A DNA stretch of 64,000 nt from Actinomycetes bacterium (GCA_024276735.1 JAJRWQ010000042.1:4563-68562), one strand, 5' to 3'. Positions 3,589 to 51,027 are shown, counted from the first letter of the stretch. The notes: generated by a model not told the origin, from the letters alone. Made by a program: numbers and translations.

Positions 3589-3675
3589 CGGCGAATTACC
3601 TGTTCGGATGCAAGGAAGGCGGCAAGCGTGGCGGAGCCCGCCACGGGAGCTCACGTAAAGAAGACTGGAGGCAAG

Positions 3676-25442: not shown

Positions 25443-25470
25443 TGACTTTTGATTGATTTTGGAGTATAAA
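25443..25470 (+). promoter_or_regulatory. sigma70-like promoter for the polysaccharide locus
   Basis: TTGACT (25443-48), 16-nt spacer, TATAAA (25465-70), in a locally AT-rich island. A ~110-nt leader then runs to the ATG at 25582. Confidence 0.45.
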
Positions 25471-25581
25471 AAGCTAGCAGCGGCACGCAGGCAAGTTCGG
25501 CGAACCTCAGGTTTTACTCAGGATCACCATCCCCAGGCGCCTGAAATGCTGCTATGCTGCACCACTAGGGGAAAGGATGTC

Positions 25582-27135: not shown

Positions 27136-27322
27136 TTGGCCCTCGCCGCCACCGATGATCTTCTCGACTGAACGGACGATTTCTCTTTCCCGGAGCCACG
27201 ATTGTTTCTCAGGCCTCACGTGCTGTTAGAATGAGCCTTCGGAAAGAGCAAGGGCTGGCCGGGACAGGGTTTTACAGGGGGCGGAGGCGGATCTTGAACC
27301 ACCGACTGACTGGAGATGAGCA

Positions 27323-30202: not shown

Positions 30203-30226
30203 AACTGGAAACCGGGAGTGACCCCC

Positions 30227-33268: not shown

Positions 33269-33965
33269 ACCTCTCTTTTTCAAGGAATACGCACGACGCC
33301 TGCGCCACGAGCCCGACTACTTCCAGCAGGAAGTGGACAGGCACCTGTTCGAGGGCGCGGTGGTGCTGGACGCCGGCTGCGGTAGCGGTGAGTTCGGTGT
33401 TCTCAGGAAATGTGGCGACCGTGCCGGCAGGATCATTGGCATGGATATCAGCGCCGAGGCACTGGCCCGCAACCAGACCATCGACGAGAGCATCGTTGGT
33501 TCGCTGGACAACATACCGCTGGAAAGCAGCTCTATCGACCTCATAGTTTGTGAATCCGTCTTCGAGCACCTGGAGCACCCGCAACCGGTATTTTCGGAAT
33601 TTTCCAGGGTGTTGAAGCGGGACGGGGTCCTGGTGATGAGAACCTTCAACAAGTGGAACTGGGCCAATTTCATCAGTGCCTGCCTACCGGTGGGCGTGAG
33701 GACACGCTTGAAAGGACACCTGCTTTCCGAAGACAGCGAGGGCACCTTCGAGACATATTACCGCTGCAACACGCGCAAGCGGTTGCAGCAGCTTTGTGCG
33801 AATGCCGGCCTGCGGGAGGAGAAGTTCATTACCTTCGGTGCCTGGCCCGGGTACTGGAGTAGCAGGTTCATGGTCTCCCTGTTCGCCCTGTATGAAAAGG
33901 TCACCGATTTCGGCGCACTCAGGAAAGGGAAGGTGTTGATCGTGGGGGTGTACCGGAAATGCTGA
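33255..33965 (+). CDS. class I SAM-dependent methyltransferase
   Basis: VLDAGCGSGEF motif. Overlaps the end of the preceding gene by about 14 nt. Confidence 0.7.
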   Translation: MPMTEPLFFKEYARRLRHEPDYFQQEVDRHLFEGAVVLDAGCGSGEFGVLRKCGDRAGRIIGMDISAEALARNQTIDESIVGSLDNIPLESSSIDLIVCESVFEHLEHPQPVFSEFSRVLKRDGVLVMRTFNKWNWANFISACLPVGVRTRLKGHLLSEDSEGTFETYYRCNTRKRLQQLCANAGLREEKFITFGAWPGYWSSRFMVSLFALYEKVTDFGALRKGKVLIVGVYRKC

Positions 33966-34005
33966 CTGGTTCAAAGCCGGGATCGGTATCTGCGGGATCA
34001 TCCGG

Positions 34006-35580: not shown

Positions 35581-35778
35581 CCGGAGCTTGTCCTCCAGTC
35601 ACCGCGGGAAGAGAAAATGTGTATACTTAGTAGCTGGAGCTTTGTGATACCGAGAAGGGTACTGGCAGGCACCCGCTGCATTCGTGCGTGGAGAACTCAA
35701 TGCCGGGACGCTATCGGCCGATTGAGGGTTTGTTCGGTCCAAAGCAGTCCGGGATTAGCGTAGAGAAAGGATTATTTC

Positions 35779-36576
35779 GTGGACCTGATTGAGCTGCTGA
35801 GTATCATCCGGCGGAGCAAATGGATAATACTAGTGGTGACACTCATCGTTACCTCGGTGGTGGCGTACCGGGCATTCAGTGCCCCGCCCCGGTATGAAGC
35901 CGAGGTTATCATGACCGTGGGGGATTTTTCTCCTTCCGGAAAGAGTTTCAGTGATGAAGACATTATCGCCGCCAGCTATGCCGAGCTGGTGAATACCCCC
36001 CTGGTACAGGAGAAGGCTTTCGGGGAAACCGGCGTTTCCGGCGTTTCCGTGGTTCCCGTAACCGAGAAAGACAGTCCCCTGCTGCGGCTTACCGGCAGCG
36101 GATCGGAACCCGAGGCCGTGGCAGACGCGACCAACGCGGTGGCGACGGCCCTGGTGGACCGGGTTTCGGAAATCCAGATGGATATGCTGGAGAACTCGCG
36201 GCAGCGGCTGCTGGGCGAACTTACCAGGGTGGAAGGAGAGTTGTCCGGAGAAAAGGCAAAGCCGCAGGCGGACAGCAACAGGATCAACGCCCTGCAGGGC
36301 TACAGGCTGTCGTTGCTCAAGCAGAGTGAAGAGCTGGCGCTGCAGATGGGAGAGGGGCCGAACCTGACGGTGGTTTCTGCTGCAACCGAGAGTCACTTCA
36401 TCCCGGCCAGGTCACTGAGGAAAACGATACTGGGCCTGGCGATTGGTTTGCTTGGAGGGATCGTTGTCGGTTTCGTCTATCAATCGCTGAAAAAGGCGAT
36501 CGAGGGTGGCCGGGCTGAGCGAGCCGCGGGGGTGGCCCACCCGGGAACTGCCGCGAGTCCGGAAACTACTGATTGA
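35779..36576 (+). CDS. Wzz-like chain-length determinant (polysaccharide co-polymerase) protein
   Basis: N-terminal TM helix (RRSKWIILVVTLIVTSVVAY), coiled-coil periplasmic region, C-terminal TM helix (ILGLAIGLLGGIVVGFVY). No BY-kinase partner in the window. Confidence 0.6.
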   Translation: MDLIELLSIIRRSKWIILVVTLIVTSVVAYRAFSAPPRYEAEVIMTVGDFSPSGKSFSDEDIIAASYAELVNTPLVQEKAFGETGVSGVSVVPVTEKDSPLLRLTGSGSEPEAVADATNAVATALVDRVSEIQMDMLENSRQRLLGELTRVEGELSGEKAKPQADSNRINALQGYRLSLLKQSEELALQMGEGPNLTVVSAATESHFIPARSLRKTILGLAIGLLGGIVVGFVYQSLKKAIEGGRAERAAGVAHPGTAASPETTD

Positions 36577-36621
36577 CCTTGGTGAGGCGTCATCGGGCCG
36601 TGGCGGCCTCCGGGAAGCCGG

Positions 36622-37566
36622 ATGGATCTATCTGTAATAATCGTTAATTGGCGTACTCGTGATCTCTTGCGGGATTGCCTGTCTCACGTCGACGATGCAT
36701 GTCGCGGCATAACCGCCGAGACAATCGTTATTGACAATGGATCGTCCGACGGGAGCGTCGAGATGGTCAGGGAGCGGTTTCCCGACGTGCGGCTGATTGA
36801 AAATGCCCGCAACCTGGGGTTCGCCAGGGCAGCAAACCAGGGGATCGAAGCCAGCTGGGGCAAGTACATCGCCCTTGTCAACTCCGATACCATGCTATCA
36901 CCTGGCTCGCTGGCGGGGATGACGAAGTTTATCGACGGGCATCGTGACGTGGGGGCGGTGGGTTGCCAGTTGCTCTGGCAGTCGGGGAAGATGCAGTACA
37001 GCGGCGGTTCTGCGCCGACTATCGGTGCTGCCCTCCGGCAGCTGTTGATGCTGCCAAACATCACCGGCGGCCGTCTTACCGGCGTTTTCATGAACGTAAG
37101 GGACAACGGCGAGGCCCAGGAAGTCGACTGGGTTTGCGCTGCCTGCATGGTCGTTTCCCGGGAAGCAGTGGATAATGTAGGTCCGCTCACGGAGCAGAGA
37201 TTCATGTACGCGGAAGACATCGACTGGGGACTGAGGATGAAGGCGGCGGGGTGGAAAGTAATGCTGTTGCCCTGGATCAGGGTCGTTCATTACGGCGGCG
37301 CAAGCGGGTCGTGGCAAACCGGAGGCGGTCATACGGCTTGGCTGGAAGGACTTTTCGACGTGGCAAGGGATAATCACCAGGCAGGCGGTTATACCGTTTT
37401 CGGTTTGCTGATGTCGGCATCGTTCGCGATCAAGACCGTGGTGTATTCGCTTGTTTCCCTCGCCCGGGGCGGGCGGGGCAGTATGGCTGCGCGAGCGGCA
37501 GCCCAGAGGAACTACCTGAATACCTCTCTCGCATTGACCATGAGACGGCCGGCTGCCAAGAAATGA
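36622..37566 (+). CDS. family 2 glycosyltransferase
   Basis: LSVIIVNWRTRDLL...VIDNGSSDGS...ALVNSDT GT-A fold with DxD. Confidence 0.8.
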   Translation: MDLSVIIVNWRTRDLLRDCLSHVDDACRGITAETIVIDNGSSDGSVEMVRERFPDVRLIENARNLGFARAANQGIEASWGKYIALVNSDTMLSPGSLAGMTKFIDGHRDVGAVGCQLLWQSGKMQYSGGSAPTIGAALRQLLMLPNITGGRLTGVFMNVRDNGEAQEVDWVCAACMVVSREAVDNVGPLTEQRFMYAEDIDWGLRMKAAGWKVMLLPWIRVVHYGGASGSWQTGGGHTAWLEGLFDVARDNHQAGGYTVFGLLMSASFAIKTVVYSLVSLARGGRGSMAARAAAQRNYLNTSLALTMRRPAAKK

Positions 37567-38288
37567 GCATGAACCTGGCGCCACAACGGTTACTGGAACG
37601 GGCCGTCTGCCGGGCTAGGCGAAATTACGATTACCGGCTCGACCCCGAACTGGGCGCCATGGCGGCGACCCGGCTGATAGCACAGAAGTCTGCCTGTGCC
37701 GCCAGGGGGTTGCTACAGGGCATGCGCCTGCGCAGCTGCGGAATGCCGCTTTTCGTGGGAAGGCGGGTCATTATCAGGCACCCCGACATGTTATCTCTCG
37801 GCAAAGGGGTAGTCATCGACGATGGCGTCATCATCGAGGCCCTGTCCCGCCGTGGGGTAACCATCGGGGACGGAACAACGATAGAAAAAATGGCCCTGAT
37901 CAGGGTGACCGGCGTGCTCAGCAACCTGGGTGAAGGATTGACCATCGGCAGCTATTGTTCGGTAGGAGCGTTTTCCTACCTGGGTGCGGCGGGCGGTATC
38001 AGCATCGGTAACAACGTGCTGGTGGGGCAGAGGGTGAGCCTGCATGCCGAGAATCACATTTTCGATGACGCGGAGAGACCGATTCGCGAGCAGGGGGTCA
38101 GCAGGCGTGGTATCAGGATCGAGGACGATTGCTGGATCGGCTCGGGGGTGGTGATCCTGGACGGGGTGACGATCGGTCCCGGGACGGTCATTGGTGCCGG
38201 CAGCATCGTCACCGAGGATATTCCCGGCGGCTCGGTGACCGTAGGCGCACCCGCCAGGGTCATCAGGCGCAGGGGAGAGAGCGATTGA
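37563..38288 (+). CDS. hexapeptide-repeat (left-handed beta-helix) acetyltransferase
   Basis: Repeated [LIV]G..... hexapeptides (IGNNVLVGQRVSL, IGSGVVILDGVTIGPGTVIGAGSIV). ATGA overlap with the GT2 gene. Confidence 0.75.
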   Translation: MSMNLAPQRLLERAVCRARRNYDYRLDPELGAMAATRLIAQKSACAARGLLQGMRLRSCGMPLFVGRRVIIRHPDMLSLGKGVVIDDGVIIEALSRRGVTIGDGTTIEKMALIRVTGVLSNLGEGLTIGSYCSVGAFSYLGAAGGISIGNNVLVGQRVSLHAENHIFDDAERPIREQGVSRRGIRIEDDCWIGSGVVILDGVTIGPGTVIGAGSIVTEDIPGGSVTVGAPARVIRRRGESD

Positions 38289-38329
38289 GCATGCAACCGG
38301 CAGAGATGGTTCCCCGGGAGGTCAAGGGG

Positions 38330-39733
38330 ATGAACAAGACCGCCGCGGCCGTGGCGGTAGTGGCGGGGCTGATCATCACCTACCTGTGGCTGGGAAATCC
38401 ACTGGTACTCCTTTTCCTGATCATCGGAACGGTGGCCCTGATCGCGGTTTCGGACCTCTACCGGGGCTTCATCATCCTCCTGGTGGCGACGCAGTTCAAC
38501 GGTTACCGCTTCAATGTCGGAGCCTATACCATCCGCATCGAACACCTGGTTCTCCTGCTGCTCATCATTGTCTGGACGGCCAATTTTCTGCAGGGCCGCG
38601 TCCGCTGGCACAAGACCATGCTCAACAAGCCGATACTGGCCTTGATCATCACGGGGTTCGTTTCCTCGTACCTGTTCTCACCGGACGTGGTGAAAAGCTA
38701 CCAGGGAGTAATGCTGCAGATGCTCTACATCAGCATGTACTTCATGGCAGTGAATGTTCTCCTCGAGTACCCCGACAAGGTCAAGCAGGTGATCAAGATC
38801 TTCCTGGTCATTGGCGTCGCTCACGCCGTCTGGGCGCTGGTGGCCCTGGTCTTGTACCAGGCCGGTGTTTTCGTGGGCGGCATTTCACCTGGTAATTTTG
38901 GTACCCTGGGTCTTCCCGCAACTAGGGGGTTCCTGCAGGAGAGCGACCTGATGGGCGCTTACGGCGGCGTAATACTGTTGTTACTGCTGGCTCATTTCAT
39001 CAGCTACCGGCCTACTTACCTGGCGCGTCGCTGGGTCCTGCTGGCGGCCATGATTCCGCCGTTCATCGTCATCATCACCGCCATGGCACGGGCGGCGTGG
39101 CTGGGCATCTCCTTCTGCCTGGTGTTGATGATCTTCATGCTTCGTCCCCGGTTCAACGTGATCAACCCCAAGACACTGGGCGTGTTGATTACATCGCTGG
39201 TACTTTTCGTGGCCCTGGTCTTTCCCACGGTCAACTACGTGATGTCGACCGTTTCGGGAACCGAGAACGCGCTGGTGAAGAGGATCCAGGCGATCCTCGA
39301 TTTTGAAAGCGGCTCCGGCGCCGGCAGGGTGAGGGTTCAGAAGCTGGCGATCGAAGAATGGAAGGAATCGCCGTGGCTGGGCAGTGGCCTGTTCTCGATC
39401 CAGGGCGAGGATCTCCCTTCCGGTCACTGGCTGTACAGTACGCTCATCCAGGCCCTGCACGATACCGGCCTGGTAGGTTTCCTGCTCACGCTATGGATTC
39501 ACCTGGGAGTGATCGTCAGCAGCTTCGCGGCGATGATGAAGACTCGTGACCCCTTCATGAAGGCGACACTCGTAGGCTTCGGCATGGGGGCGATCACCAT
39601 CGCCGTCTCGTCACAGGCATCTTCGTTCTTCTGGCTCGGGTTTCCCTGGTTGTTCATGGGCATCGTCATGGCGGTTTCCATCATGGCGAAGGGCGGGGTA
39701 ACGGTGGCCACGCGAACAGGTGGTGCGACGTAA
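38330..39733 (+). CDS. O-antigen ligase / Wzy-like polymerase family membrane protein, copy 2
   Basis: Polytopic; the ITAMARAAWLG motif is a Wzy_C-like loop. GGGAGG lies 8 nt before ATG 38330 (alternative ATG 38291). Confidence 0.6.
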   Translation: MNKTAAAVAVVAGLIITYLWLGNPLVLLFLIIGTVALIAVSDLYRGFIILLVATQFNGYRFNVGAYTIRIEHLVLLLLIIVWTANFLQGRVRWHKTMLNKPILALIITGFVSSYLFSPDVVKSYQGVMLQMLYISMYFMAVNVLLEYPDKVKQVIKIFLVIGVAHAVWALVALVLYQAGVFVGGISPGNFGTLGLPATRGFLQESDLMGAYGGVILLLLLAHFISYRPTYLARRWVLLAAMIPPFIVIITAMARAAWLGISFCLVLMIFMLRPRFNVINPKTLGVLITSLVLFVALVFPTVNYVMSTVSGTENALVKRIQAILDFESGSGAGRVRVQKLAIEEWKESPWLGSGLFSIQGEDLPSGHWLYSTLIQALHDTGLVGFLLTLWIHLGVIVSSFAAMMKTRDPFMKATLVGFGMGAITIAVSSQASSFFWLGFPWLFMGIVMAVSIMAKGGVTVATRTGGAT

Positions 39734-39737
39734 GGTC

Positions 39738-40877
39738 ATGCGGGTAGTCATCGACGCACATGCCATCGGCGAACGCCTGACCGGCAACGAAACGTACATC
39801 ACCAACCTGATCGACAACCTGGTTGCGCTGGATGGCGGGATGGAGCTGACGCTGCTGTTTACCCACAAGGATGCCGAAGAAGAATGGCGATCGAGGCACG
39901 ACGGGGTGAAAACAGTGCTGGTGAGACCCGCAAATCCACTGGTGAGAATCCCCCTGGCGATGCCACTGGTGTCGAGACTGCGGAAGGCCGATATTCTTCA
40001 TGTTCAATACGTGGGACCGCCGGTGTCATCGCTGCCACTGGTGGTCACCGTGCATGACATCTCCTACGAACATTACCCGGAGTTTTTCACGCGCCGGTAA
40101 GCGCTGCAGTTCAAGCTCACTATTCCCTACACCGCGCGCAAGGCTGCCAGGGTGTTGACCGTGTCCGAGTTCTGCCGCAAGGACATCATTGATCGCTATG
40201 GTTTGCCGGAAGACAAGGTGGTGGTGACGTATGACGGCGTCGACGCCCGCTTCTTCGAGCCAGCGACGCCCGGGGAGATCGAGCAAACGAGGAAGAAGTA
40301 CGGCATCGGTGATGCCTACATCCTCACCGTTGGCAATCTCCAGCCGCGGAAGAACCTGGTGAGACTGATCGCTGCTTACTCACGGTTGCGGCGGGCGCGG
40401 CCGGACATCCGTCACCAGCTGGTGATCGTGGGCAAGAAAGCCTGGAAATATCACCCGATCATGAAGTCGGTGAAAGATTCGCCCTGGGCGGACGATATCA
40501 TTCTCACCGATTACATTCCTGACGAAGACCTGCCCGCGCTCTACAGGGGTGCCGCGGTAATGGCGTACCCTTCGATGTTCGAGGGTTTCGGGCTGCCGCC
40601 ACTGGAGGCCATGGCGTGCGGCACGCCGGTGGTGGTATCGGATCGCTCGGCGCTGCCAGAGGTGGTTGGCGGTGCCGGCATCAAGGTCTACCCGTACGAT
40701 GTCGAGGAGATAGCGTCGGCCATCGCCGCCGTGCTGCTTGACGAGGATGTCGCTGCCTGGTTCGGGCGCGCCGGTGAGAAAAGGGCGACCCGCTTTACCT
40801 GGGAGCAGTGCGCGAAGAGAACCATGCAAGTATACGAAGAAGTCTACCGGATGGCACGCGGAAGGAGCGGAAATTGA
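39738..40877 (+). pseudogene. GT4 glycosyltransferase interrupted by an in-frame TAA at 40098-40100
   Basis: ORFs 39720..40100 and 40152..40877 share one frame. The junction reads ...[39 protein letters not shown], colinear with the GT4 consensus (...FF.RR.RLYF..L.P...R.AD.I.TVSE). C-terminal EGFGLP motif. Confidence 0.65.
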
Positions 40878-42019
40878 AGATTTCCATGCTGGGCACCAGG
40901 GGCATTCCGGCCAACTACAGCGGCTTCGAGACCGCCGTGGAGGCCATCAGTACCCGTCTGGCGGCAAGGGGACACCAGGTGAGCGTCTATTGCCGTCCCC
41001 ACATGGTGGACTTCGAGGGTGAAGATTACCGGGGGGTGCGCCTGGTGCACCTGCCCACGGTGAAGAACAAGTTTCTCGACACCATAGTGCATACGTTTAT
41101 CAGTACCGTGCACATGGGTATCTTCAATCGCCCGGACGTGGCCGTCTACTTCATTGCCGGCAACAGCCCTTGTGCCCTGCTGTCCCGGCTGCTTGGTATC
41201 CCGTCTCTCATCAATGTTGATGGCCTCGATTCGCATCGCCAGAAGTGGAACCGGCTGGCGAGGAAGTATATCCGCTTAGCCGAATGGTTTTCACCCGTTG
41301 CCGCCAACCGCGTCATTTCCGACTCCCGCGTCATAAAAAAATATTACCGGGAGCGCTACGGCAAGGACAGCGACTTCATCCCCTACGGGGCCGACGTGCT
41401 TCAGGAGCAAGGAACTGAAACCCTGGAACAGTTCGGGCTGGAGGCTGGCCAATATGTCCTGTTCGTCGGTCGCCCGGTGCCCGAGAACTGCGCCCACGTA
41501 CTCATCAAGGCTTTCGAGAAGATTGAAACCGACATGAAGCTGGTGATAGTCGGCGATGCGCCCTACGCGGAAGAGTACATCGACGAGTTGCGCGCCACGA
41601 AGGACGAGAGAGTGATTTTCACCGGCTACCTCTTTGGAGAAGGTTACCGCCAGCTGAGCTATCATTGCGGGGTGTTCGTAGTGCCCACGGAGGTTGGTGG
41701 CACCCACCCGGTAATCCTGGAGGCGATGGCGGCCGGCGCCTGCCTGCTGGTGAATAATCATCCACCCAACCTGGAGTGCATCGGTGATGCCGGTGCCAGT
41801 TACGATGGCAGCAGGGGTGAAGAGGGCCTGCGCGAGGAGCTAGAGAAGCTGCTGGACGACCCGGATCTCAGGCGGCGGTTGAAGAAGAAGGCAGTGGAGA
41901 GGGTGCGCAGCGAGTATAATTGGGACCGGGTGGCGTCCATGTACGAAGAGCTTTGCGGTCGTTACGCAAGGAAGGGTTTCAGGAAGTCCGGAAAGCCGCT
42001 GGGAGAGGGTGGAACATGA
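40874..42019 (+). CDS. GT4 glycosyltransferase with DUF1972-type N-terminus
   Basis: MKISMLGTRGIPANYSGFETAVE is the hallmark DUF1972 N-terminus, followed by a GT1/GT4 C-domain. TTG start at 40874 lies 5 nt after GGAGG and overlaps the upstream stop. Confidence 0.8.
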   Translation: MKISMLGTRGIPANYSGFETAVEAISTRLAARGHQVSVYCRPHMVDFEGEDYRGVRLVHLPTVKNKFLDTIVHTFISTVHMGIFNRPDVAVYFIAGNSPCALLSRLLGIPSLINVDGLDSHRQKWNRLARKYIRLAEWFSPVAANRVISDSRVIKKYYRERYGKDSDFIPYGADVLQEQGTETLEQFGLEAGQYVLFVGRPVPENCAHVLIKAFEKIETDMKLVIVGDAPYAEEYIDELRATKDERVIFTGYLFGEGYRQLSYHCGVFVVPTEVGGTHPVILEAMAAGACLLVNNHPPNLECIGDAGASYDGSRGEEGLREELEKLLDDPDLRRRLKKKAVERVRSEYNWDRVASMYEELCGRYARKGFRKSGKPLGEGGT

Positions 42020-43707
42020 GCAAGAATGACGAGAAGTTGCTGATAATCGGGTTCGATGGCGCCAGCCCGAACCTGTTGGAACGATGGGTGGAGGAAGGAA
42101 AGCTGCCCACGATTGCCAGGCTGATGGAAGAGGGAGCATACGGTTCCCTGCGCTCGGTGCCCACCATGAGCAGTCCCCCGGCGTGGTCCAGCCTGGTCAC
42201 CGGCAAGAATCCCGGCAAGCACGGCATCTTCGCCTTTACCGAGCGCAAATTCGACGAGTATCGATATTCATACGTGAACGGCTCCCACAGGAAGGAGCCC
42301 GCCTTCTGGAAGCTGCTGGGTGATGACCTGGTGCTCTGCATAATCAACGTTCCCATCTCCTATCCAGCCGAGAAAGTGAACGGTTGCATGATCGCCGGCC
42401 TGGATGCGCCGGGGGTCGACAGCAGCCGCGTCTGCTACCCGGAGGGATTGATCGAGGAGCTCACCGACAGGAACGGCCGCTACAGCATCATGCCGGACTT
42501 CGGCGGCTTTCTCAGGCGCGGCGCCCGCTGGGGGGCGACGCTCCGGGAATTCCTGGACTCAATGGACAGGCGCAGGCGGCACTCGGAATACCTGATGCAG
42601 AAGTACCCATGGGATCTATTCAAGGTAGTATTCAACGAGACCGACCTGGCACACCATTTCTTCTGGAAGTTCCAGGACCCGGAACACCCGGACTATCGCG
42701 AGAGCGAAGCACGCGAGTTCGGGGACGCGATTCTCAAGGTATACCAGAAGATGGACGAGATCACGGCGGCATTCATGCAGCAGGCGCCCGGTGCCACCGT
42801 GATGCTGGTCTCGGACCACGGGGGTGCCATCAATACCAGGGGCACCGAGCTGATAAACGACTGGCTGGCGAACCTTGGCCTGTACAGCCGGGACGAGAGA
42901 GGGGGAAAGGGGCTGCCCTCGCGTATCGTGGAGGCGGTAACGCGGAGCGGTTACAATCTCCTCACGAAGTATCTTTCACAGAGCCTGAAGCACAAGCTGG
43001 CGAGACGCATGCCGCAGATGCGCGAAAAGGCAGAGGCGGCCGTCCGCCTCAAGGATATCGACTGGTCGCGCACCCGAGCCTTCTGTGACGGTGCCCAGGA
43101 TGACATATGGATCAATCTCGCCGGCCGCGACCCCCAGGGAATAGTCGACGAGGGCGAATACGACCAGCTGTGTGACTTCATTTGCGAGGAGCTGGGCCAG
43201 GCCGTCGACGTGGTGACCGGCGAGAGCATCGTCGACGCCGTGTTCAGGCCCAGGGACGTGTACAGCGGCGACTACGTCCACAAGGCAGCCGACATCAGTG
43301 TCCGCTGGAAGACGGAAAAGGTCATATACGGAATCTCCACCCCTGCCTGCAAGGGCAAGGTGATCGAGCCGAAGAAGTGGACGTGGGAGGCGGATCATCC
43401 CAACGGCGGGCACAGCCTCGACGGCATCGTCCTTGCTGCCTGTGAAGGGATCAGGAGCGGTACCAGGGTGGAGGATGCCGAGATAGCGGACATTGCGCCA
43501 ACCGTTCTCTATCTCTTCGATCGCGAGATACCGGCCGACATGGACGGCAGGGTCCTGGAAGGTATTTTCGACGAGGACCGCCTCTCATCACGCCCACCGC
43601 GCATCGCCGCCACCGGCAGCGACAAGGTGCAGAAGGACGAGGATATCTACACCGACGAAGACTCCGACGTGATCGAAAAGCGCCTGCAGGACCTGGGTTA
43701 CATCTAG
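42016..43707 (+). CDS. alkaline-phosphatase-superfamily protein (PF01663-like), paralog 3, with C-terminal acidic linker and RLQDLGYI tail
   Basis: LLIIGFDGASPNLLE...VPTMSSPPAWSSLVTGKNPGKHGI. ATGA overlap with the upstream GT4. Confidence 0.75.
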   Translation: MSKNDEKLLIIGFDGASPNLLERWVEEGKLPTIARLMEEGAYGSLRSVPTMSSPPAWSSLVTGKNPGKHGIFAFTERKFDEYRYSYVNGSHRKEPAFWKLLGDDLVLCIINVPISYPAEKVNGCMIAGLDAPGVDSSRVCYPEGLIEELTDRNGRYSIMPDFGGFLRRGARWGATLREFLDSMDRRRRHSEYLMQKYPWDLFKVVFNETDLAHHFFWKFQDPEHPDYRESEAREFGDAILKVYQKMDEITAAFMQQAPGATVMLVSDHGGAINTRGTELINDWLANLGLYSRDERGGKGLPSRIVEAVTRSGYNLLTKYLSQSLKHKLARRMPQMREKAEAAVRLKDIDWSRTRAFCDGAQDDIWINLAGRDPQGIVDEGEYDQLCDFICEELGQAVDVVTGESIVDAVFRPRDVYSGDYVHKAADISVRWKTEKVIYGISTPACKGKVIEPKKWTWEADHPNGGHSLDGIVLAACEGIRSGTRVEDAEIADIAPTVLYLFDREIPADMDGRVLEGIFDEDRLSSRPPRIAATGSDKVQKDEDIYTDEDSDVIEKRLQDLGYI

Positions 43708-43907: not shown

Positions 43908-44000
43908 AGAGCGATACCTGGAAAGGGCAAACCCGTCACGAGGCGGGGGCGCAAAGCCAAGGGTCTCTCCAGCTGGGAGACAGCCTGGCTGCCAAAGGGG
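43908..44000 (+). ncRNA. c-di-GMP-I (GEMM) riboswitch-like element in the 5' leader of the 44011 gene
   Basis: Contains the two signature blocks GGCAAACC and GGCGCAAAGCC in the right order and spacing (...CCTGGAAAGGGCAAACCCGTCACGAGGCGGGGGCGCAAAGCCAAGGGTCTCTCCAGCTGGGAGAC...), with a small hairpin between them (CGTC-acga-GGCG) and a second hairpin after them (GTCTCTCC-agct-GGGAGAC). Confidence 0.55.
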
Positions 44001-44010
44001 TAAGGTAACG

Positions 44011-45810
44011 GTGCCGAAGAAGAACGTGCTTCTGGCTGCTCTCGTGGGGGCCTTCTTCCTGATCCTGGTCGTAGCGGAGGCTCCCGTCAGCAGTTCCCTG
44101 GCGGGTGAAGTGGGGATTCCGCCGGGGTACGGAGCCGCCACCGGCGGCAACGGATTCGTATTTTCCGACGACACCTCCGCCAAGAAACTCACGCTGGAAA
44201 ATGCCAACCTGAAGATCGTCTGGCATTACGGTTACCAGAGGACCGAGTTCAACAACCGCGGCGGCGGCAACATCTACGAGCTGTACGACAAGCGTACCGA
44301 CCCCCAGGCGGTGCGTAACCTGGTGGGCAACATCGACTACGGGACCGGGAGCACTGGCCCGCCCCTGATCGGAATCGGTGGCCTGGGATCGACGTATCTC
44401 TACGGCGCCGGCCTGGGGAATCCGGCCACCGGCGACAATGGTCACTTCGCGCGGCTGGTCGACGGCAGCATGTCATATTATGTCGACGCCGACGGTAACG
44501 CCGTGTTCACCGCGGCCTACATCGTCAGGAAGTGGGTCCTGCCTTATTCACCGGACTCTCCTGACAATTACCGGGTGGACAAGAAATGGACGGTGTACCC
44601 GGAGGGGCAGATCAAGTACGAGGTGAAAGTGACGCTGCTGAGGGATTTCACTGCACCCGACCCGGGCATCGCCGAGCCTTATTACGGGTTCGTGTTCAGC
44701 CGGGATTACGGTTGGACCAAGGCGGCTGCCTGGAGGCACGATCGCCACGACGTCACCAGGCGCGGACCTTGCCAGAATACCGGTTCGGATGGTTACGCAA
44801 ACAGCGCCAACGGGTTCCTGACCTTCAACGACATCGACAGCAACGATCATGCCATCTCCGACCGTAACTACTCGTTGGGACATACGCAGTACTTCACGCT
44901 CTACGGGCAGCAGAACGGGGTTTCCGTCCGCGTGAAAATGGACAACGGTGGCAAGGGTTTCGAGAACGGCGGCCTCTTTGCCTTCGGGTCGGAGAAGTGG
45001 GGCGGCCTGGCCGAGAACGTGACCTCGGAGTTTTCCAATGCCAACCTGTTGCCAACGCAGGCTTCATACGGACTGGGCCGCGGCTACTCCATTCACTGGT
45101 ATGGGTGGTGGGGTGGCGGTGCTCCTCCACCGGAACGGTACCGCACGGCACACGCGGGAGAATCCTGGTCGGATACTTTCTCGATCGAGCTGCTGACCAA
45201 CAGCGACCTGGCCTCGCCCCGTGTCGAGAACGTGCGGACCACCGAAGAGATTTCTTCGGCGACGGTGGAATGGGATACCAACGTGGCCTCGAGCACCGTG
45301 CTCGAATACTGGGAGCGCGGCAGCAATACGCGCCACCGGGTGAGCGTGGATGGCTGGACTCCGAAACACAAGGTGGTGCTGAACTCGCTAAGGGCCGGAA
45401 AGACCTATGATTTCGAGATCGTCAGCGGCGACGGATCGGGCGAGACGCGCACCAGCGGTTCGTTTGCCACCAATGCCGGCGTCTTCCTCGACCTCGGCCA
45501 GGAATCCGTCAGGTGGGACAGTTATGCAGATTACACCAACCGCCTGCTGACTGTGGACTTCGTCGCCCGTAATCTCGGGAGCGAACCTTTCAACCAGGCG
45601 GAGATAGTAGCGGTTAACAACAGTTCGGGGGTTGAAACCAGGCGGTACACCGCGCAGCTCGGCGACCTCGCCGTCGGCGACAGCGTGCAGTTCCAGGTGG
45701 CCTACTTCGTGCCGGTGGGCGTGCGCTCATTCAAGACGGAGCTCGTTTTCAAGGGCTTCAACAGCAGCGGCACGGAAATCTTCTTCCCGCAGGTTCCTCC
45801 CGGGTTCTGA
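44011..45810 (+). CDS. large secreted protein of unknown function with a C-terminal fibronectin-III-like domain
   Basis: GTG start; signal peptide MPKKNVLLAALVGAFFLILVVAEA; Gly/Trp-rich middle; FN3-like segment (ENVRTTEEISSATVEWDTNVASSTVLEYWERGSNTRHRVSVDGWTPKHKVVLNSLRAGKTYDFEIVSGDG). Confidence 0.55.
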   Translation: MPKKNVLLAALVGAFFLILVVAEAPVSSSLAGEVGIPPGYGAATGGNGFVFSDDTSAKKLTLENANLKIVWHYGYQRTEFNNRGGGNIYELYDKRTDPQAVRNLVGNIDYGTGSTGPPLIGIGGLGSTYLYGAGLGNPATGDNGHFARLVDGSMSYYVDADGNAVFTAAYIVRKWVLPYSPDSPDNYRVDKKWTVYPEGQIKYEVKVTLLRDFTAPDPGIAEPYYGFVFSRDYGWTKAAAWRHDRHDVTRRGPCQNTGSDGYANSANGFLTFNDIDSNDHAISDRNYSLGHTQYFTLYGQQNGVSVRVKMDNGGKGFENGGLFAFGSEKWGGLAENVTSEFSNANLLPTQASYGLGRGYSIHWYGWWGGGAPPPERYRTAHAGESWSDTFSIELLTNSDLASPRVENVRTTEEISSATVEWDTNVASSTVLEYWERGSNTRHRVSVDGWTPKHKVVLNSLRAGKTYDFEIVSGDGSGETRTSGSFATNAGVFLDLGQESVRWDSYADYTNRLLTVDFVARNLGSEPFNQAEIVAVNNSSGVETRRYTAQLGDLAVGDSVQFQVAYFVPVGVRSFKTELVFKGFNSSGTEIFFPQVPPGF

Positions 45811-45846: not shown

Positions 45847-46950
45847 TCAACGCCTGAAGATACCCTTCAAAAAATCTGTGGCCACCCCGCGGTTCTTGTA
45901 GCCCGCCTTCAGCAGCGTTTTCGCCTTGCCCAGGGCGCCGGACTTCACCTCGGCGGCCTTTGCGGAATCGCCCTTGCTGGCAAAGGGCCTGGCCATTATC
46001 TCCCGCAGAACCTCCAGCCTGTCCCGGTAGCCGTTGACCAGGATCAGCTTCCATAGCCTGCGGGGCAGGTGGTCGGCAAGTATATCCTCCTCGATTATCC
46101 CGGTCAGCCTTTCACCCCACCAGCCGGCGCCAGCCTGGGCGCGAATATCCGCCATGAATGCCGGGGGGGCATGGGCACCCAGTACGTCGGTGGCCAGGCG
46201 GAGGGAATAGTAGACGCACCTGCTTATGCCGTGAACGGCGGAATCTGCCAGCACCTGCTCCCAGTCCATGGCATCGCCGTATTCAACCAGCACGGCATGG
46301 ATATCGGTCAATTCACGCAGGTTCTCCCAGTGATGCTTGTACTGGTGCAGGCACAGGTGCATCAGCTGGTTCTCGGGCGAGAAGATGAGCACCTCCTTCC
46401 CGCCGACTTTCTTTTTCACTGCCTTCCGGTGGAAGCGTTCGATGTCGATGCTGTAAGGAGCCAGCTTGTCCAGGAGGTCCCAGTGAATCTCGGCGACGGT
46501 ACCCTGGTTCACGTACGACCACTCGCAGCCCAGTTGCTCGTTGAGGTGATCGGGATTGCGATAACACCCCGATACGAGCTCGTATCCCAGCCTGGGCATG
46601 ATCTCTTTTGCTGCCGGAAGATCCTGCCTGCGGATCAGCAGATCGAGGTCGGTAAAAGGCCGCAATCCCGGGTCCGGGTAAACGGTCATGCACAGCGCAG
46701 GTCCCTTGAGGATGAAAAGGGGAATTCCCCTGTCGTTGAATGCCTCCAGCAACGGTTCCAGACGTTTCATCAGCCGACTGTTGTTCATGAGCGAGTAGAC
46801 GTAGGATTTCCTGAGTCCTTCGAAAATCTCGCCGGGGACGGCGTCGCGGCCAGCATCTTCGACAGATCCCAGGTGATGGAAGAGCAGCGGCGAGACGCGG
46901 TGGCGGTTCGACTTGTCGAGCACCCAGCGCCAGTCCTGGATCGATCGCAC
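45847..46950 (-). CDS. PF14907-type nucleotidyltransferase-family protein (as found in lasso/RiPP tailoring clusters)
   Basis: Pol-beta-like NTase core LFILKGPALCMTVYPDPGLRPFTDLDLLIRRQDL (G..........RP..D.D pattern). GTG start. Last gene of the minus-strand operon. Confidence 0.6.
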   Translation of the reverse strand: MRSIQDWRWVLDKSNRHRVSPLLFHHLGSVEDAGRDAVPGEIFEGLRKSYVYSLMNNSRLMKRLEPLLEAFNDRGIPLFILKGPALCMTVYPDPGLRPFTDLDLLIRRQDLPAAKEIMPRLGYELVSGCYRNPDHLNEQLGCEWSYVNQGTVAEIHWDLLDKLAPYSIDIERFHRKAVKKKVGGKEVLIFSPENQLMHLCLHQYKHHWENLRELTDIHAVLVEYGDAMDWEQVLADSAVHGISRCVYYSLRLATDVLGAHAPPAFMADIRAQAGAGWWGERLTGIIEEDILADHLPRRLWKLILVNGYRDRLEVLREIMARPFASKGDSAKAAEVKSGALGKAKTLLKAGYKNRGVATDFLKGIFRR

Positions 46951-47051
46951 CAGGAGACCCAGTCTTTCCTGTTCGCCCGGCTCAAGCGCGACACGTTAAC
47001 AAAGCAGCATCAGTTGCTTTTCCGGGAGATGGTTCGTTCCGGGTTGACCGT

Positions 47052-48941
47052 TCATGATATGCCTGTTTCCCTGGTGAGGACGGGAGCGCGCCGGTAGAGC
47101 CTCAGGTCGTTTCCCGCGTAGATGAGCTCGTATTCGCTGCTGGCTTCTACCGCTTCGACAATTTTTTCCCTGCCCGTGAAGAGACGAAAGCTTTCCAGGT
47201 TGCCAGGCACCCTGTCGTCTATGATGACGTAATCTTCCTTGAGAATCTCTTCACCGAGGTCGGCCCGGTAGGGTATCTGGAAATACCCCGTCGGCGACTG
47301 GTTCTTTCCCGCGAAGACAAGCATGTATGAGGGCATGATAACAGAAGCATCTTCGGGTAGTTGGTTCAGCACCCTGAGGGCGGCATCGTAATTGTATCGT
47401 GGCTGGTAACGTTGGGGCGTGAACCAGACATGGTAGGAGCCGATACAGGTGAACAGCATCACCACCAGGAGCGCGCTCACGAGGCGTTTCCTGGAAGCGT
47501 CGTCGCCGGGCTTCAGCTTGCCGGCCAGGCGGAGAAGGCCGGAGGCGAGGGCGGCAAACAGGGGCACGATGATGATTATCGTGTTCTGGGAGTTGATGGT
47601 TATCCTGGCGCCGGTGGTAACCAGGAGGTTCTCGGCGAGGCCTGGCAAGGCCAGCAGCGACAGGGGAGAAAGCAGGGGGATTCCAAACCCGGCGGTTTGG
47701 AACAGCCCGTACACCAGGCCCAGGTTCGACTGGCTGCTGAATGCCCTGGTAACGAGGGCCCACGGGTGGGAAACGAGGTATTTTGCCAGGCCCAGCTGGC
47801 TGCCCCCGTATTCCTGGTAGACGATTTTCAGTCTTTCGAAATCACCGGCCGGGTTCGAGAGCTGGATCAGGTAGTGGGTGGCGGCGATGAACCAGGCCGC
47901 CGAGAGCAGCGCTGGAAACAGTATCCAGCGCCAGTTACGACGGTTCAGGAGGGCCAGGAGAGCCAGGGTGAAATAAAGGAGGGAGATATCCTCGCGCACG
48001 CTCATGGTCAACAGCATGAAAACCATGAATGGAACCAGGCGTCTCTTCTGAAAGAAGTAGATGCTGAAAAAGAAAGGAAGGGCAAAAAAACGCATCTCCG
48101 ACATGTCCTGGACCCCCGCGGAACCGGCGATGGTGGGGCTGGCGAGGAAGGCCAGCGCCAGCAGCAGGCTCTGCGAGGATGAGAGTCGCGTGCGCGCAAC
48201 GAGGTAGAGGGGGAAGATGGCGGCGACCATGGCTAACTGGGCGATGACGAGGATGGTTTCGTAGCGCGGCAGCAGTAAGAACAAGGGGTAGATGGCGAAG
48301 AACACCAGGTTGGCATGTACCCCCAGCAAGCTGGCGCCGTCGGCCTGGAGCACCGTCGAATACAGCAGCCCCCTCTCGTCGAAGGCGTTTTGCAGTACCT
48401 GCACCGCGAGCTCGGTATTAGGCCCCCAGTCGTGCATGTAACGGTGCATGAGAATGCTCAGGATGCTGCCGACCGCAATCCAGGTGACGGCCAACACTGT
48501 CAACGTCAGCCACGGCCGCCGGGAAACCCTTGTCAGGGGTCCGCCACCGGGACGAAGGGTGGAAATCAACAGGAAAATGAGCACGATGCCCAGCAGCACC
48601 TCGGACAGCAAAACGAACCAGTTGGGCAAGTAGTCGACTTCGGTGTTCGGAAGCGATACCAGCCGGTGCCAGAGGTAGGGAGTGCTCAGCAGCAGGGGCA
48701 GGAGCCCGGCGACGAAGGAGAGAGCGATCCAGCCGCGGTCATACGCGCCTTCCGGCCGGGCCAGGCGACGATCGACCGCGAGCCAGGCGGTGGAAAAGAC
48801 GACCGCCGCCGGAAGCGCCGCGATCATTGCCATCGCCGGTTTGCTCCCGTTCACCACCAGCGCCAAGGCCGCGGTCACGAGGGCGGAAACGAATACCAGC
48901 AGGTGGTAACGATACTGGAGGAGAGGAGAACCCGGTGTCAT
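47052..48941 (-). CDS. DUF2079-like polytopic membrane protein (possible GT-C-fold glycosyltransferase)
   Basis: 629 aa with more than 12 predicted TM helices and large loops. Its ATG overlaps the stop of the upstream B2-like gene (ATGA), so it is translationally coupled. Confidence 0.5.
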   Translation of the reverse strand: MTPGSPLLQYRYHLLVFVSALVTAALALVVNGSKPAMAMIAALPAAVVFSTAWLAVDRRLARPEGAYDRGWIALSFVAGLLPLLLSTPYLWHRLVSLPNTEVDYLPNWFVLLSEVLLGIVLIFLLISTLRPGGGPLTRVSRRPWLTLTVLAVTWIAVGSILSILMHRYMHDWGPNTELAVQVLQNAFDERGLLYSTVLQADGASLLGVHANLVFFAIYPLFLLLPRYETILVIAQLAMVAAIFPLYLVARTRLSSSQSLLLALAFLASPTIAGSAGVQDMSEMRFFALPFFFSIYFFQKRRLVPFMVFMLLTMSVREDISLLYFTLALLALLNRRNWRWILFPALLSAAWFIAATHYLIQLSNPAGDFERLKIVYQEYGGSQLGLAKYLVSHPWALVTRAFSSQSNLGLVYGLFQTAGFGIPLLSPLSLLALPGLAENLLVTTGARITINSQNTIIIIVPLFAALASGLLRLAGKLKPGDDASRKRLVSALLVVMLFTCIGSYHVWFTPQRYQPRYNYDAALRVLNQLPEDASVIMPSYMLVFAGKNQSPTGYFQIPYRADLGEEILKEDYVIIDDRVPGNLESFRLFTGREKIVEAVEASSEYELIYAGNDLRLYRRAPVLTRETGIS

Positions 48942-49438
48942 TGCCTGTTCCTCGAAGATGTCCCGTTGTTGGCGACGTCGGAATCGCCCACGGTATCACC
49001 GGGATAAGCATAGGTCGTCACGTATGGCCGCTGCTGGTCCTCGAGGAAAACTTCACCGTCCAGGACCAACCAGCTATGCCCGGTGATATCCCGGTCGCCA
49101 TCGCCGGTTTTCATGATACCGAAGCGTATCTCCACCGGCCAGCCCTGGCGGCGCAGAAACTTGAAAAGGGTCAGCGAGCGGAGAAAACACCTGCCGTAGC
49201 GCCTGAGCAGCTTGAACTCCAGAAGGGCATCAACCATGTTGGTTGTCTTTCGCAAACCTGCCTCGTCGGTCGCGGTGCAGGAGACCCCGGGGTCGAGGCT
49301 TTTCAGCAAACGCGGCAGGCTCTGGGAGCGAATCTTGCGTGGCAAGCCCAAGATCGTGAAGAAGATCTCGAAAAAAAGCAGGAAATCACCCGGCCTTCGG
49401 GGCTTCAATGCTGCTTTGAACAAAGTGGATTTCTTCAT
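48938..49438 (-). CDS. lasso-peptide B2-like transglutaminase-fold cysteine protease (McjB-like)
   Basis: GRCFLRSLTLFKFLRRQGWPVEIRFGIMK...GHSWLVLDGEVF supplies the Cys, His and Asp of the B2 catalytic triad in the canonical order and spacing. Confidence 0.7.
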   Translation of the reverse strand: MKKSTLFKAALKPRRPGDFLLFFEIFFTILGLPRKIRSQSLPRLLKSLDPGVSCTATDEAGLRKTTNMVDALLEFKLLRRYGRCFLRSLTLFKFLRRQGWPVEIRFGIMKTGDGDRDITGHSWLVLDGEVFLEDQQRPYVTTYAYPGDTVGDSDVANNGTSSRNRQ

Positions 49439-49585
49439 CTCGATATGGCTGACCGGTCGTGGGAACGTTAGTGGAAGGGCAACGGCTCCCGACTTTCAAA
49501 AGGCTTCTCGATGACGGACCGACAGGGAAGCCTTGGCCCCTGTATGCCGAAAGCTCACTGAAAGGGAGAGGGTTGGGCGGGCCGT

Positions 49586-49900
49586 TTAAAGGTCTTCTTT
49601 GGACTGCGCCTCGTCCAGCGGAGACTCGGCGGTCCTGACCAGCCCTTCACTGACCAGCTGTTCCGCCAGTTCCATGATGTCCTTCTCGGCCACTTCCCGG
49701 GAGATCTCGAACTCCTGGGTGATCAATGACGCGAGGTCGGCGATGCTCTTGCTGCCATCCGCCAGTACCCACAGGCGGGACCCCACCTTGTTCAGGCTGT
49801 AATAGTCGCCGCGCTCGATGTGCAGCAGCACTGCATCTTCGCCCATGGACGTGAAAAGCACGTCCTCTTCCTTTATCAGGTAGTGGTCTCTCTTTATCAT
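49586..49900 (-). CDS. PqqD-family RiPP recognition element protein (lasso B1-like)
   Basis: 104 aa; DAVLLHIERGDYYSLNKVGSRLWVLADGSKSIADLASLITQEFEISREVAEKDIMELAEQLVSEGLV is the PqqD/RRE pattern. GGAGAGG RBS. Confidence 0.75.
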   Translation of the reverse strand: MIKRDHYLIKEEDVLFTSMGEDAVLLHIERGDYYSLNKVGSRLWVLADGSKSIADLASLITQEFEISREVAEKDIMELAEQLVSEGLVRTAESPLDEAQSKEDL

Positions 49901-49929
49901 ACCAACCTCTCCAAGTTCGGCCTCGAGGA

Positions 49930-51027
49930 TTAATTATCGCCGTCTGCGGCCACGCTGTCCAGCAATTTTCTCACCGTGCGCTCCAATTCCTGCTGATCGC
50001 TCCCGGAAAGGAGGCGGAAACTGCTGGCTTGCCGGGCCAGCTGCGAGAGCACCTGGAAGTGCCTGCCGGTGGTAGCGGGATCCATGAAGAAGAAGCCGTA
50101 CCGCAGCGATTCCGAGAGCGCCTCCGTCGGCTTCATGGGCTCCGCTTCCGTTTCGGCGGCGTTGCCGATGCGGGGGAAGATCATCACCGCCGGCTTGGCG
50201 GCCGTCTCCAGGCAGCCGGGGTAGAGCTCTTCCACGTCGAAGGAGGATTTCCGCCGCAGCTCGTTTTCGTTGAAACTCTCGACCCGCGACAGCTCCGGCA
50301 GCAGCTCGATGGTCTCCTTGCGCACGTTTATCTCCTCGGGGAACGACAGGGCTTCCACCTCGCCGTCCTGCTCCCGGAGGAATACCGTATCATCGCTGAG
50401 CAGGCCGAAGCCACTCCGGAGCAGGTTCAGCGACAGGGTCGACTTGCCGCTGCCGCTCCTGCCCAGGAAGAGGGACGCCTTGCCATCACGCACCAACCCC
50501 GCCGCGTGCAGGGGAAACAGGCCGTTCATCTTCAGCAGCTGCGCCCAAAGCGGATAGAAACACAGGTTGGTGACCAGCCAATCCGATTCCAGCAGGTTCC
50601 TGGCGGCGAAGCCGGCCGCCGTGCACTGCTCCACATCCGCGGTCACCCGGGCCCCCCGTTCCACCACCAGGAAACGGCAGGCATGCCGGTGGTAGACCTT
50701 GAGGGCCCCCCAGTCGTAGAGCAGCGATGCCTCGGGAACGGGGGACATTTCCTCGGCGAGGTCGTCGACGAAAAAGAGGTGAAAGTCGATATCGACCTCG
50801 GCCAGGGGCGCAACGGCGAACGGTTCCAGGAAGGTGGCCAGGGCTTCGGCAGCGCGGGGATCGTTGGTGGTAGCGCGGGTGGTGATGCCGTGAACATCGA
50901 AGGTGTTCACCACCAGGTCGGCACCGCATCTCTTTTTTCCCAGCCGTACCTGCTCGGCCCCGGCGTCGGGGTGGCAATCTTTCGTCATGCTGGAGCAATC
51001 GGTTTTGCGGATGGCACCGCGGATCAT
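49930..51027 (-). CDS. HPr-kinase-like P-loop kinase (C-terminal HprK domain), lasso/RiPP precursor-kinase-like
   Basis: LFLGRSGSGKSTLSLNLLRSGFGLLSDDTVFL is a Walker A in HprK_C context. First gene of the operon, 29 nt upstream of the PqqD gene. Start ATG 51027 or ATG 50994. Confidence 0.7.
   Translation of the reverse strand: MIRGAIRKTDCSSMTKDCHPDAGAEQVRLGKKRCGADLVVNTFDVHGITTRATTNDPRAAEALATFLEPFAVAPLAEVDIDFHLFFVDDLAEEMSPVPEASLLYDWGALKVYHRHACRFLVVERGARVTADVEQCTAAGFAARNLLESDWLVTNLCFYPLWAQLLKMNGLFPLHAAGLVRDGKASLFLGRSGSGKSTLSLNLLRSGFGLLSDDTVFLREQDGEVEALSFPEEINVRKETIELLPELSRVESFNENELRRKSSFDVEELYPGCLETAAKPAVMIFPRIGNAAETEAEPMKPTEALSESLRYGFFFMDPATTGRHFQVLSQLARQASSFRLLSGSDQQELERTVRKLLDSVAADGDN

Follow-up and report, generated by a model that had tools for sequence, protein, structure and literature searches.

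We analysed a 64,000-nucleotide stretch of DNA from an Actinomycetes bacterium (GCA_024276735.1, JAJRWQ010000042.1:4563-68562), which we call the window. Positions 45847-51027 of its minus strand hold a cassette of five genes in the same direction whose products resemble the accessory machinery of phosphorylated lasso peptides. A preliminary description, made from the sequence alone, had recognised a kinase, a recognition element of the type used by peptides that are made on ribosomes and modified after translation (a RiPP recognition element, RRE), a B2-like protease, a DUF2079 membrane protein and a nucleotidyltransferase (NTase), without a lasso cyclase. ORF calling recovered the five open reading frames (ORFs) exactly where it had placed them. 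The domain searches that it had proposed as a check, which we ran with Pfam and NCBIfam, upheld all of its domain calls.

The five genes of the cassette

The genes are as follows, in the order in which they would be transcribed.

49930-51027, minus strand: HprK/PEPCK-fold P-loop kinase (365-aa ORF; Walker A, TIGR04352 match below cutoff, AF2 model and Foldseek)
49586-49900, minus strand: PqqD-type RRE, discrete and lasso B1-like (PF05402, E = 7e-19)
48938-49438, minus strand: B2-type transglutaminase-fold cysteine leader peptidase (PF13471, E = 2e-14; NF033537 above cutoff)
47052-48941, minus strand: DUF2079 polytopic membrane protein with a predicted GT-C fold (PF09852, E = 5e-32; structural model)
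45847-46950, minus strand: PF14907 nucleotidyltransferase-fold enzyme (PF14907, E = 1.5e-59)

The kinase contains the P-loop GRSGSGKST, as previously quoted. Its best-matching model is TIGR04352, at 65 bits against a cutoff of 200 bits, and PF07475 scores 22.6 bits against 33.3. The AF2 model has a pLDDT of 88, and Foldseek matches it to PEPCK (E = 4e-10, TM 0.55) and to HprK/P (E = 1e-6). An alignment with 16 relatives shows that H174, G192, G194, K195, T197 and D213 are invariant and that S193 and D212 are at least 90% conserved; the Walker A motif, H174 and the LSDD motif are conserved. All features expected of an HprK/PEPCK-fold kinase are therefore present, namely the Walker A motif, the His, the Asp-Asp pair and the PEPCK-like fold. 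Alignment with the relatives places the true start of the protein probably at Met14, around position 50988. The wider kinase family is large, comprising 1,524 representatives of 50%-identity clusters at E<=1e-10. About 70 homologues are 44-65% identical to the window's kinase, and those with named sources come from Thermoleophilia, Gaiellales and other Actinomycetota metagenome-assembled genomes (MAGs). An identity gap lies beneath this group, down to 27-40% in other lineages.

The PqqD-family protein had been called an RRE of the B1 type, and this was confirmed: the solved structures nearest to it are lasso B1 proteins. The closest is TbiB1 (6e-10), followed by PbaB1, TfuB1 and LppB. The window's protein keeps the Asp of the sequence EKDIMEL (pattern E-x-D-I-x-x-(F/L)), whose equivalent in LppB and in actinobacterial B1 proteins hydrogen-bonds the leader Tyr. 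A metagenome scan with a single PqqD protein as the query yielded three contigs only, of 1-1.5 kb.

The protease scores 39.6 bits on NF033537, the model for lasso B2 proteins (cutoff 33). The motifs GRCFLRS...GHSWLVLDGE are present as reported, and the catalytic triad is intact. The Cys and the His of GH(S/C)W are invariant in 28 relatives drawn from both of the gene architectures described below, and an acidic residue 12 positions past the His (usually Glu, in an (L/V)E motif) occurs in more than 90% of them. The window thus has two parts of a lasso cluster, an RRE (B1) and a B2 protein with a catalytic triad.

The start codon of the DUF2079 gene was said to overlap the stop codon of the B2 gene, and indeed the two share 4 nt (48938-48941). 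The two genes overlap or lie at most 11 nt apart in all 11 loci that have both, the window included; this count omits locus L003, which is a duplicate of L002. The DUF2079 protein had been described as GT-C-like, and its predicted model shows a clear GT-C fold. As GT-C comparators we considered ALG12, PMT, AglB/PglB/STT3, ArnT, AftB, PimE and PIG-U, a subunit of the GPI transamidase. By contrast to these GT-C proteins, the window's subfamily has no conserved first-loop Asp: the Asp that other DUF2079 proteins carry in the sequence FDLGN is not conserved in the orthologues of the window's protein, although D..E.RF and RED are invariant. We know of no characterised member of DUF2079, and a literature search found no paper on the family. 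To our knowledge, the pairing of a cysteine protease with a GT-C-fold protein is otherwise known only in the GPI transamidase, a case of analogy and not of homology.

The assignment of the last gene to the PF14907 nucleotidyltransferases was sound. Its metal-binding motif FTDLDLLI (DxD) is conserved in 25 relatives, and the family HMM match combined with this motif predicts a PsmN-like enzyme. In pseudomycoidin biosynthesis, PsmN is needed to add a hexose to phospho-Ser, and its D134/D136 pair, to which the window's DxD corresponds in kind, is needed for activity (PMC6993621). The literature search found nothing that links PF14907 to a context such as the present one.

The spacer between the PqqD and B2 genes is 147 bp long in the window (49439-49585) and non-coding, with no ORF or terminator evident, whereas relatives with both genes show an overlap of about 30-45 nt between them. 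When the operon was scanned for promoters and terminators, nothing above chance emerged.

Relatives, cyclase and precursor

We compared forty genome loci and several further contigs. Ten other distinct loci have the order kinase-PqqD-B2-DUF2079 as well, and their kinases share 55-63% identity with that of the window. In this Thermoleophilia type, the four genes are sometimes followed by a methyltransferase or an NTase gene. On one side of the cassette there is always hemW-hrcA-dnaJ, and on the other a glycan gene set that varies (GT2, GT4, Wzx, Wzy, a PMT_2-like GT-C protein, radical SAM/SPASM enzymes and PF01663). Chance does not account for an order that recurs at a fixed site in at least 10 MAG loci of the Thermoleophilia type. 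Variants also occur. Loci L016 and L017/L056 have kinase-PqqD-NTase without B2 or DUF2079, L015 and L018 have B2 without DUF2079, and L002, L008 and L010 have no NTase gene within 10 kb. Only the kinase and PqqD are universal in the Thermoleophilia lineage.

The preliminary description had also stated that the window lacks a cyclase, an ABC exporter and a precursor gene, and Pfam, phmmer and small-ORF searches bear this out. Pfam scans of all genes of the polysaccharide island to which the cassette belongs (see below) found no Asn synthase (PF00733), no ABC exporter and no signal-peptidase family. With E. coli AsnB as the phmmer query, the six-frame ORFs of the window and of 46 related loci yielded no hit better than E = 0.56, and none of the 46 loci has an AsnB-like gene in the roughly 10 kb around the kinase, as far as the contig reaches. 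When neighbouring genes were clustered, the only recurrent family of cyclase size was cl36. This family has weak VWA, Big and DUF3344 matches and a signal peptide in Pfam-based analysis and is not an Asn synthase. A Pfam census of 44 unclassified large neighbouring ORFs covered the top 25 families, and the negative result for a cyclase is that of the AsnB phmmer search.

Precursors were sought with the regular expression Y/WxxPx[LVIFAM], by clustering intergenic ORFs of 12 aa or more with blastp and by inspection of every intergenic gap. No precursor-like small ORF was found throughout the 64-kb window. Among the window and 16 loci of its type, the sole conserved intergenic element in this search was a riboswitch, and neither a cyclase nor a precursor with a lasso-length core was found in any of them. 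A leader fused to the kinase was considered and rejected. In the Thermoleophilia kinases, about 28 aa at the N-terminus form a conserved extension (...SSAVADLVRLGQQ...) with a superficial likeness to the leader sequence LQRLG, but an HMM built from 18 precursors does not match it (best E-value 14), and it contains no Y/WxxP.

Precursors do occur in a sister type of cassette with the order PqqD-B2-kinase-NTase. We found about 25 such loci in Acidimicrobiia, and others in Thermoanaerobaculia, Dehalococcoidales and Competibacteraceae. The sister cassettes share four protein families with the window and are the nearest relatives that we retrieved from outside its own clade. They differ from it in gene order, in lacking DUF2079 and in having a precursor in cis; they too have no cyclase. 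The Acidimicrobiia examples have housekeeping genes as neighbours.

The sister precursor is a small ORF directly upstream of PqqD that is conserved in 24 loci from three phyla, with Acidimicrobiia, Acidobacteriota and a gammaproteobacterium as sources (L005 9050-9196, L019 8904-9053, L025 9113-9211, L036 8985-9062, L038 8983-9093, L044 9672-9905 and about 18 further loci). Its leader is that of a canonical lasso peptide, Y-x-x-P-x-L-x3-G-x5-T-x, with Thr at position -2. The core has 3-13 residues and is usually aromatic-(S/T/Y)-Phe, with a hydroxyl residue at position 2. Examples are MESKRTYEKPELQKLGLLRRLTK followed by the core FSFTGNFPT, ...KKAYRKPSLRRLGLLRQVTR and ...KKPYKKPLLKKLGLLRNLTR, each followed by FSF, ...RRRYIAPRLTRLGLLRRLTR followed by YTF, and ...ITQ followed by VYF; the core FSFDHHQGY also occurs. 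Cores of 3-13 residues are too short for a lasso, and the residue at position 2 makes a hydroxyl group available beside the cleavage site. The literature search found no description of this short-core peptide family or of B2-type cyclase-less cassettes.

Two further loci extend this picture. In a Thermoleophilia MAG (GCA_014874265.1, locus L004, 5982-11026), a gene for a 1008-aa secreted repeat protein is followed by a precursor-like ORF of 41-51 aa (YAKPELVKHENLKEITFECSGWQC...), a Ser/Gly/Pro-rich secreted protein of 197 aa and a further kinase, the second of this MAG, that is 40% identical to that of the window. The precursor, MAKKSQREPYAKPELVKHENLKEITFECSGWQCSVVVPPAP, thus lies between a secreted protein and the second kinase, with the junction YAKPELVKHENLKEIT followed by FECSG..., and is partly similar to the precursor motif of the linear polyphosphorylated peptides (LPP) discussed below. 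No RRE was found in the 10 kb upstream of this kinase, and downstream of it the contig has only about 380 bp left; the MAG carries its RRE on another contig (L016). Since precursor and RRE are on separate contigs, an organisation in trans does occur in the Thermoleophilia lineage.

The other locus is from an Omnitrophota MAG (GCA_043817895.1, locus L006, 1-8834) and encodes a GT2-PqqD fusion and a B12-binding radical SAM enzyme, together with a related kinase, an ABC transporter and a PF14907 protein of 572 aa. It has two tandem YxxPxL precursors of 45-46 aa (3539-3679 and 3790-3927; ...CAYQKPKLNKFKRLKRM...). Through the fusion, an RRE is physically joined to a glycosyltransferase in this kinase family.

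To judge by these sequences, the kinase family works in cyclase-less, leader-guided peptide pathways, and a precursor in cis is absent only in the window's type. Given that every other examined branch of the family has such a precursor, that of the window is probably encoded in trans, elsewhere in the genome.

Chromosomal setting and recurrent neighbours

Three features next to the cassette are relevant to its possible function.

44011-45810, plus strand: secreted protein cl22 (signal peptide; convergent with the NTase gene)
43917-43997, plus strand: c-di-GMP-I-GGC riboswitch of the cl22 gene (Rfam RF03167)
25453-43707, plus strand: Wzx/Wzy-type polysaccharide island (context; Pfam scans; lower GC3 than its flanks)

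A polysaccharide locus had been noticed beside the cassette, and Pfam assigns it to the Wzx/Wzy type. It encodes a Bac_transf priming enzyme, three PF01663 phosphodiesterases, two Wzx, two Wzy_C and one Wzz protein, as well as methyltransferase, GT2, acetyltransferase and GT4 genes. GC3 is about 0.7-0.8 in the genes of 25453-51027, compared to about 0.9 in the flanks, and the cassette is the end of this island of about 25 kb. The island is bordered by a formate-dehydrogenase-like gene on one side and by hemW on the other.

Similarly, the c-di-GMP-regulated secreted protein that had been proposed is real. The riboswitch lies 14 nt upstream of cl22 and scores 72 bits against a gathering score of 59 (E = 1.8e-15), and its sequence is kept at the same place in six relatives. 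The cl22 protein consists of a signal peptide, an N-terminal domain of about 370 aa of unknown type, an FN3-like domain and a CARDB/DUF11-like domain. It has no Pfam match over threshold, and weak FN3 and Pur_ac_phosph_N matches. A homologue adjoins the cassette in L001, L007, L010, L015, L016, L017/L056 and L018, and distant relatives are present in L004, L009 and L014.

The cl36 family is also secreted and adjoins cassettes in two Acidobacteriota loci, one of Chloroflexota and one of Gammaproteobacteria (L019 7353-8888, L021 6956-8866, L036 7224-8870 and L044 14017-14991). In L019, L021 and L036 it lies directly upstream of the precursor or cassette. Homology between cl22 and cl36 was rejected (hhalign probability 3%). 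Since the two families are unrelated and both adjoin cassettes, large secreted proteins recur next to cassettes of this kind.

Radical SAM/SPASM enzymes, sometimes B12-binding ones, recur near both architectures, in L002 (7169-8548 and 15363-16508), L007 (8195-9631 and 16946-17935), L008, L010, L016, L019 and L020. In L020, such a gene separates B2 from the kinase. There is no radical SAM tailoring enzyme in the window, whose hemW is a housekeeping gene.

We also note two properties of genes in or next to the island. A GT4 gene is in two pieces on the plus strand (39720-40100, Glyco_transf_4, and 40152-40877, Glycos_transf_1) and is a frameshifted pseudogene or an assembly error. At 21209-25381 on the plus strand, two ORFs in the same frame are parted by a TGA (23753-23755, in ...NSVDHCARL*HAPSVAGL...) across which a molybdopterin-oxidoreductase domain runs on. 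This TGA looks like a selenocysteine codon, in a formate-dehydrogenase-type enzyme fused to 2Fe-2S and GltD-like domains.

Comparison with known systems and possible function

LPP are linear peptides of Bacillota that were described in May 2026 (Popov et al., Nat Commun 2026; PMC13381572). Their clusters encode an RRE, an HprK-like kinase and an NTP transferase, have no cyclase and lie inside capsular polysaccharide loci. The kinase LppK polyphosphorylates Ser3 of the core, the leader peptidase LppS is SpI-like (SipW-type) and the exporter is MsbA-like. The precursors are encoded in cis, are 35-200 aa long and have the motif YxxPxVLxHQxIxFETxxS. The NTP transferase was inactive in a heterologous host, and the authors suggest a partner encoded outside the cluster. 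According to its description, the family occurs in Bacillota only, with a patchy distribution (PMC13381572).

The window resembles LPP clusters in its discrete RRE, its HprK-like kinase, its NTP transferase (matched by description), its lack of a cyclase and its polysaccharide locus; in both cases the product expected is a linear peptide that is phosphorylated and perhaps also glycosylated. However, it uses B2 and has no gene of a signal-peptidase family in the island or cassette. It also lacks an ABC exporter and, in the 64 kb searched, any ORF with the LPP precursor motif. Moreover, it belongs to Actinomycetota, where the cassette occupies a fixed syntenic site and is coupled to a DUF2079 GT-C protein.

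The paeninodin and pseudomycoidin clusters share with the window a split B1 and B2, an HprK-like kinase, which phosphorylates a Ser of the precursor, and an enzyme of the NTP-transferase family. By contrast, these clusters have an AsnB-like cyclase, a precursor of lasso length and an ABC exporter; the window has none of these, and no relative examined has a cyclase or a precursor of lasso length.

HprK-related P-loop proteins are also paired with PqqD-family peptide chaperones in the HprK-related kinase A (HPr-rel-A) and SynChlorMet (ScmC/ScmD) systems. The preliminary description had likened the cassette to catalogued HprK-related kinase and PqqD systems that are functionally unexplained, and neither half of this comparison survives. 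The 65-bit score of the kinase is far below the 200-bit cutoff of the HPr-rel-A model, on which eight related kinases score 55-73 bits, and the window's PqqD protein has no TIGR04353 match at E<=0.1. As for the lack of an explanation, LPP have since been described (PMC13381572). Membership in SynChlorMet was rejected, with ScmC scoring 27 bits against 125 and no radical SAM partner in the cassette.

We favour, with moderate confidence, the view that the cassette is a cyclase-less, lasso-derived and RRE-guided system that yields a short linear phosphopeptide or phosphoglycopeptide, and that it is the B2-protease analogue of LPP. A linear phosphorylated or decorated peptide had already been suggested. 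That suggestion stands as the best-supported reading, in line with LPP and with the short-core, cyclase-less sister cassettes, although such a product is no longer without precedent.

Starting from what was observed, i.e., the gene content, intact motifs, predicted folds, synteny, absence of a cyclase and short-core sister precursors, we infer a pathway whose biochemical steps, including a precursor in trans, would be as follows. The PqqD RRE would bind a small precursor, probably encoded in trans, by its YxxP-type leader. The kinase would then use ATP to phosphorylate, or polyphosphorylate, a Ser, Thr or Tyr near the junction of leader and core. By analogy with the hexose step of PsmN, the PF14907 enzyme may add a further group to the phosphate. 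Next, B2 would cut the leader after Thr(-2)-x, freeing the short linear phospho(glyco)peptide. Finally, the DUF2079 protein, presumably made in a fixed ratio with B2 through the overlap of start and stop codons, would act at the membrane. It could extend a glycan on the peptide, or tie the pathway to the neighbouring Wzx/Wzy locus through its lipid-linked sugars. This step is the weakest of the proposal.

Several points weigh against the proposed peptide pathway. Neither the motif search nor the clustering of intergenic small ORFs revealed a precursor in the window or the 16 Thermoleophilia-type loci, and the window encodes no exporter. A single pathway that requires all five genes may not exist, given that B2, DUF2079 and the NTase are each absent from some relatives. 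The first-loop Asp of the wider family appears to have been lost from the DUF2079 subfamily, whose glycosyltransferase activity is not assured. The co-location with glycan islands within Thermoleophilia could reflect common ancestry and not common function.

The missing precursors would fit an alternative that we regard as unlikely but credible, in which RiPP machinery has been exapted and no small peptide is made. The machinery would act on a protein, e.g., the c-di-GMP-controlled cl22, or, jointly with the GT-C protein at the membrane, on a glycan or lipid intermediate, such that the cassette proteins are part of the assembly of an envelope or matrix polysaccharide. The coupling of B2 to DUF2079 in 11 of 11 loci, the presence of cl22 and its riboswitch beside the cassette, the unrelated secreted proteins that adjoin cassettes in other phyla and the composition that the cassette shares with the island are all consistent with this idea. 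However, the RRE keeps its leader-binding Asp and B2 its triad, cl22 has an ordinary Sec signal peptide and no YxxP motif, and every other branch of the kinase family has a small precursor in cis. In addition, the proposed partners are cytoplasmic, whereas GT-C enzymes work on the outer face of the membrane.

It is also conceivable, although improbable, that the window holds part of a split paeninodin-type cluster for a phosphorylated lasso peptide, with cyclase, precursor and exporter elsewhere and the cassette supplying B1, B2, kinase and NTase in trans. Paeninodin and pseudomycoidin clusters have exactly these four soluble proteins as their accessory set, B2 exceeds the NCBIfam cutoff for lasso B2 proteins and the best solved relative of the RRE is a lasso B1. 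Moreover, with no precursor in cis, something acts in trans anyway. Yet there is no AsnB-like gene in the window or, as far as the contigs reach, in the roughly 10 kb around the kinase in the 46 related loci, the cores of the nearest sisters, at 3-13 residues, cannot form a lasso, and the cyclase-less order is conserved in more than 10 Thermoleophilia loci.

A more speculative idea, to which we assign little probability, is that B2 and the divergent GT-C protein DUF2079 form a membrane-bound machine that conjugates peptide and glycan, in loose analogy to the GPI transamidase. An RRE-guided phosphopeptide or phosphoglycopeptide would be joined to the Wzx/Wzy polysaccharide, or would prime or anchor it. 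If this were true, a c-di-GMP-controlled matrix polymer would contain a ribosomal peptide as a structural component. The occurrence of cassettes of kinase, RRE and NTase inside polysaccharide loci in both Bacillota and Actinomycetota would be explained as well.

Finally, the cassette could be what is left of a decaying lasso cluster and have no function today. The missing cyclase, precursor and exporter, the split GT4 gene nearby and the degraded appearance of the distant relative L021 (truncated B2, no PqqD) might suggest this, but it is very improbable, given that the five ORFs are intact with their catalytic motifs, that some 70 kinase relatives are found at 44-65% identity and that many MAGs keep the gene order at one chromosomal site.

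The first description of cyclase-less relatives of phosphorylated lasso pathways dates from 2026 and concerned only Bacillota and only proteases of the signal-peptidase type. What is new here is a version based on B2, which is widespread in uncultured Actinomycetota and present in at least three other phyla, and some of whose peptide cores have only three residues. The coupling of a cysteine protease to a GT-C-fold protein is explained by no described system. The cassettes offer entry points into an uncharacterised kinase family of more than 1,500 clusters at 50% identity and into an uncharacterised GT-C family. Moreover, their location inside surface-polysaccharide loci in two distant phyla makes the long-suspected link between such peptides and capsules or biofilms directly testable.

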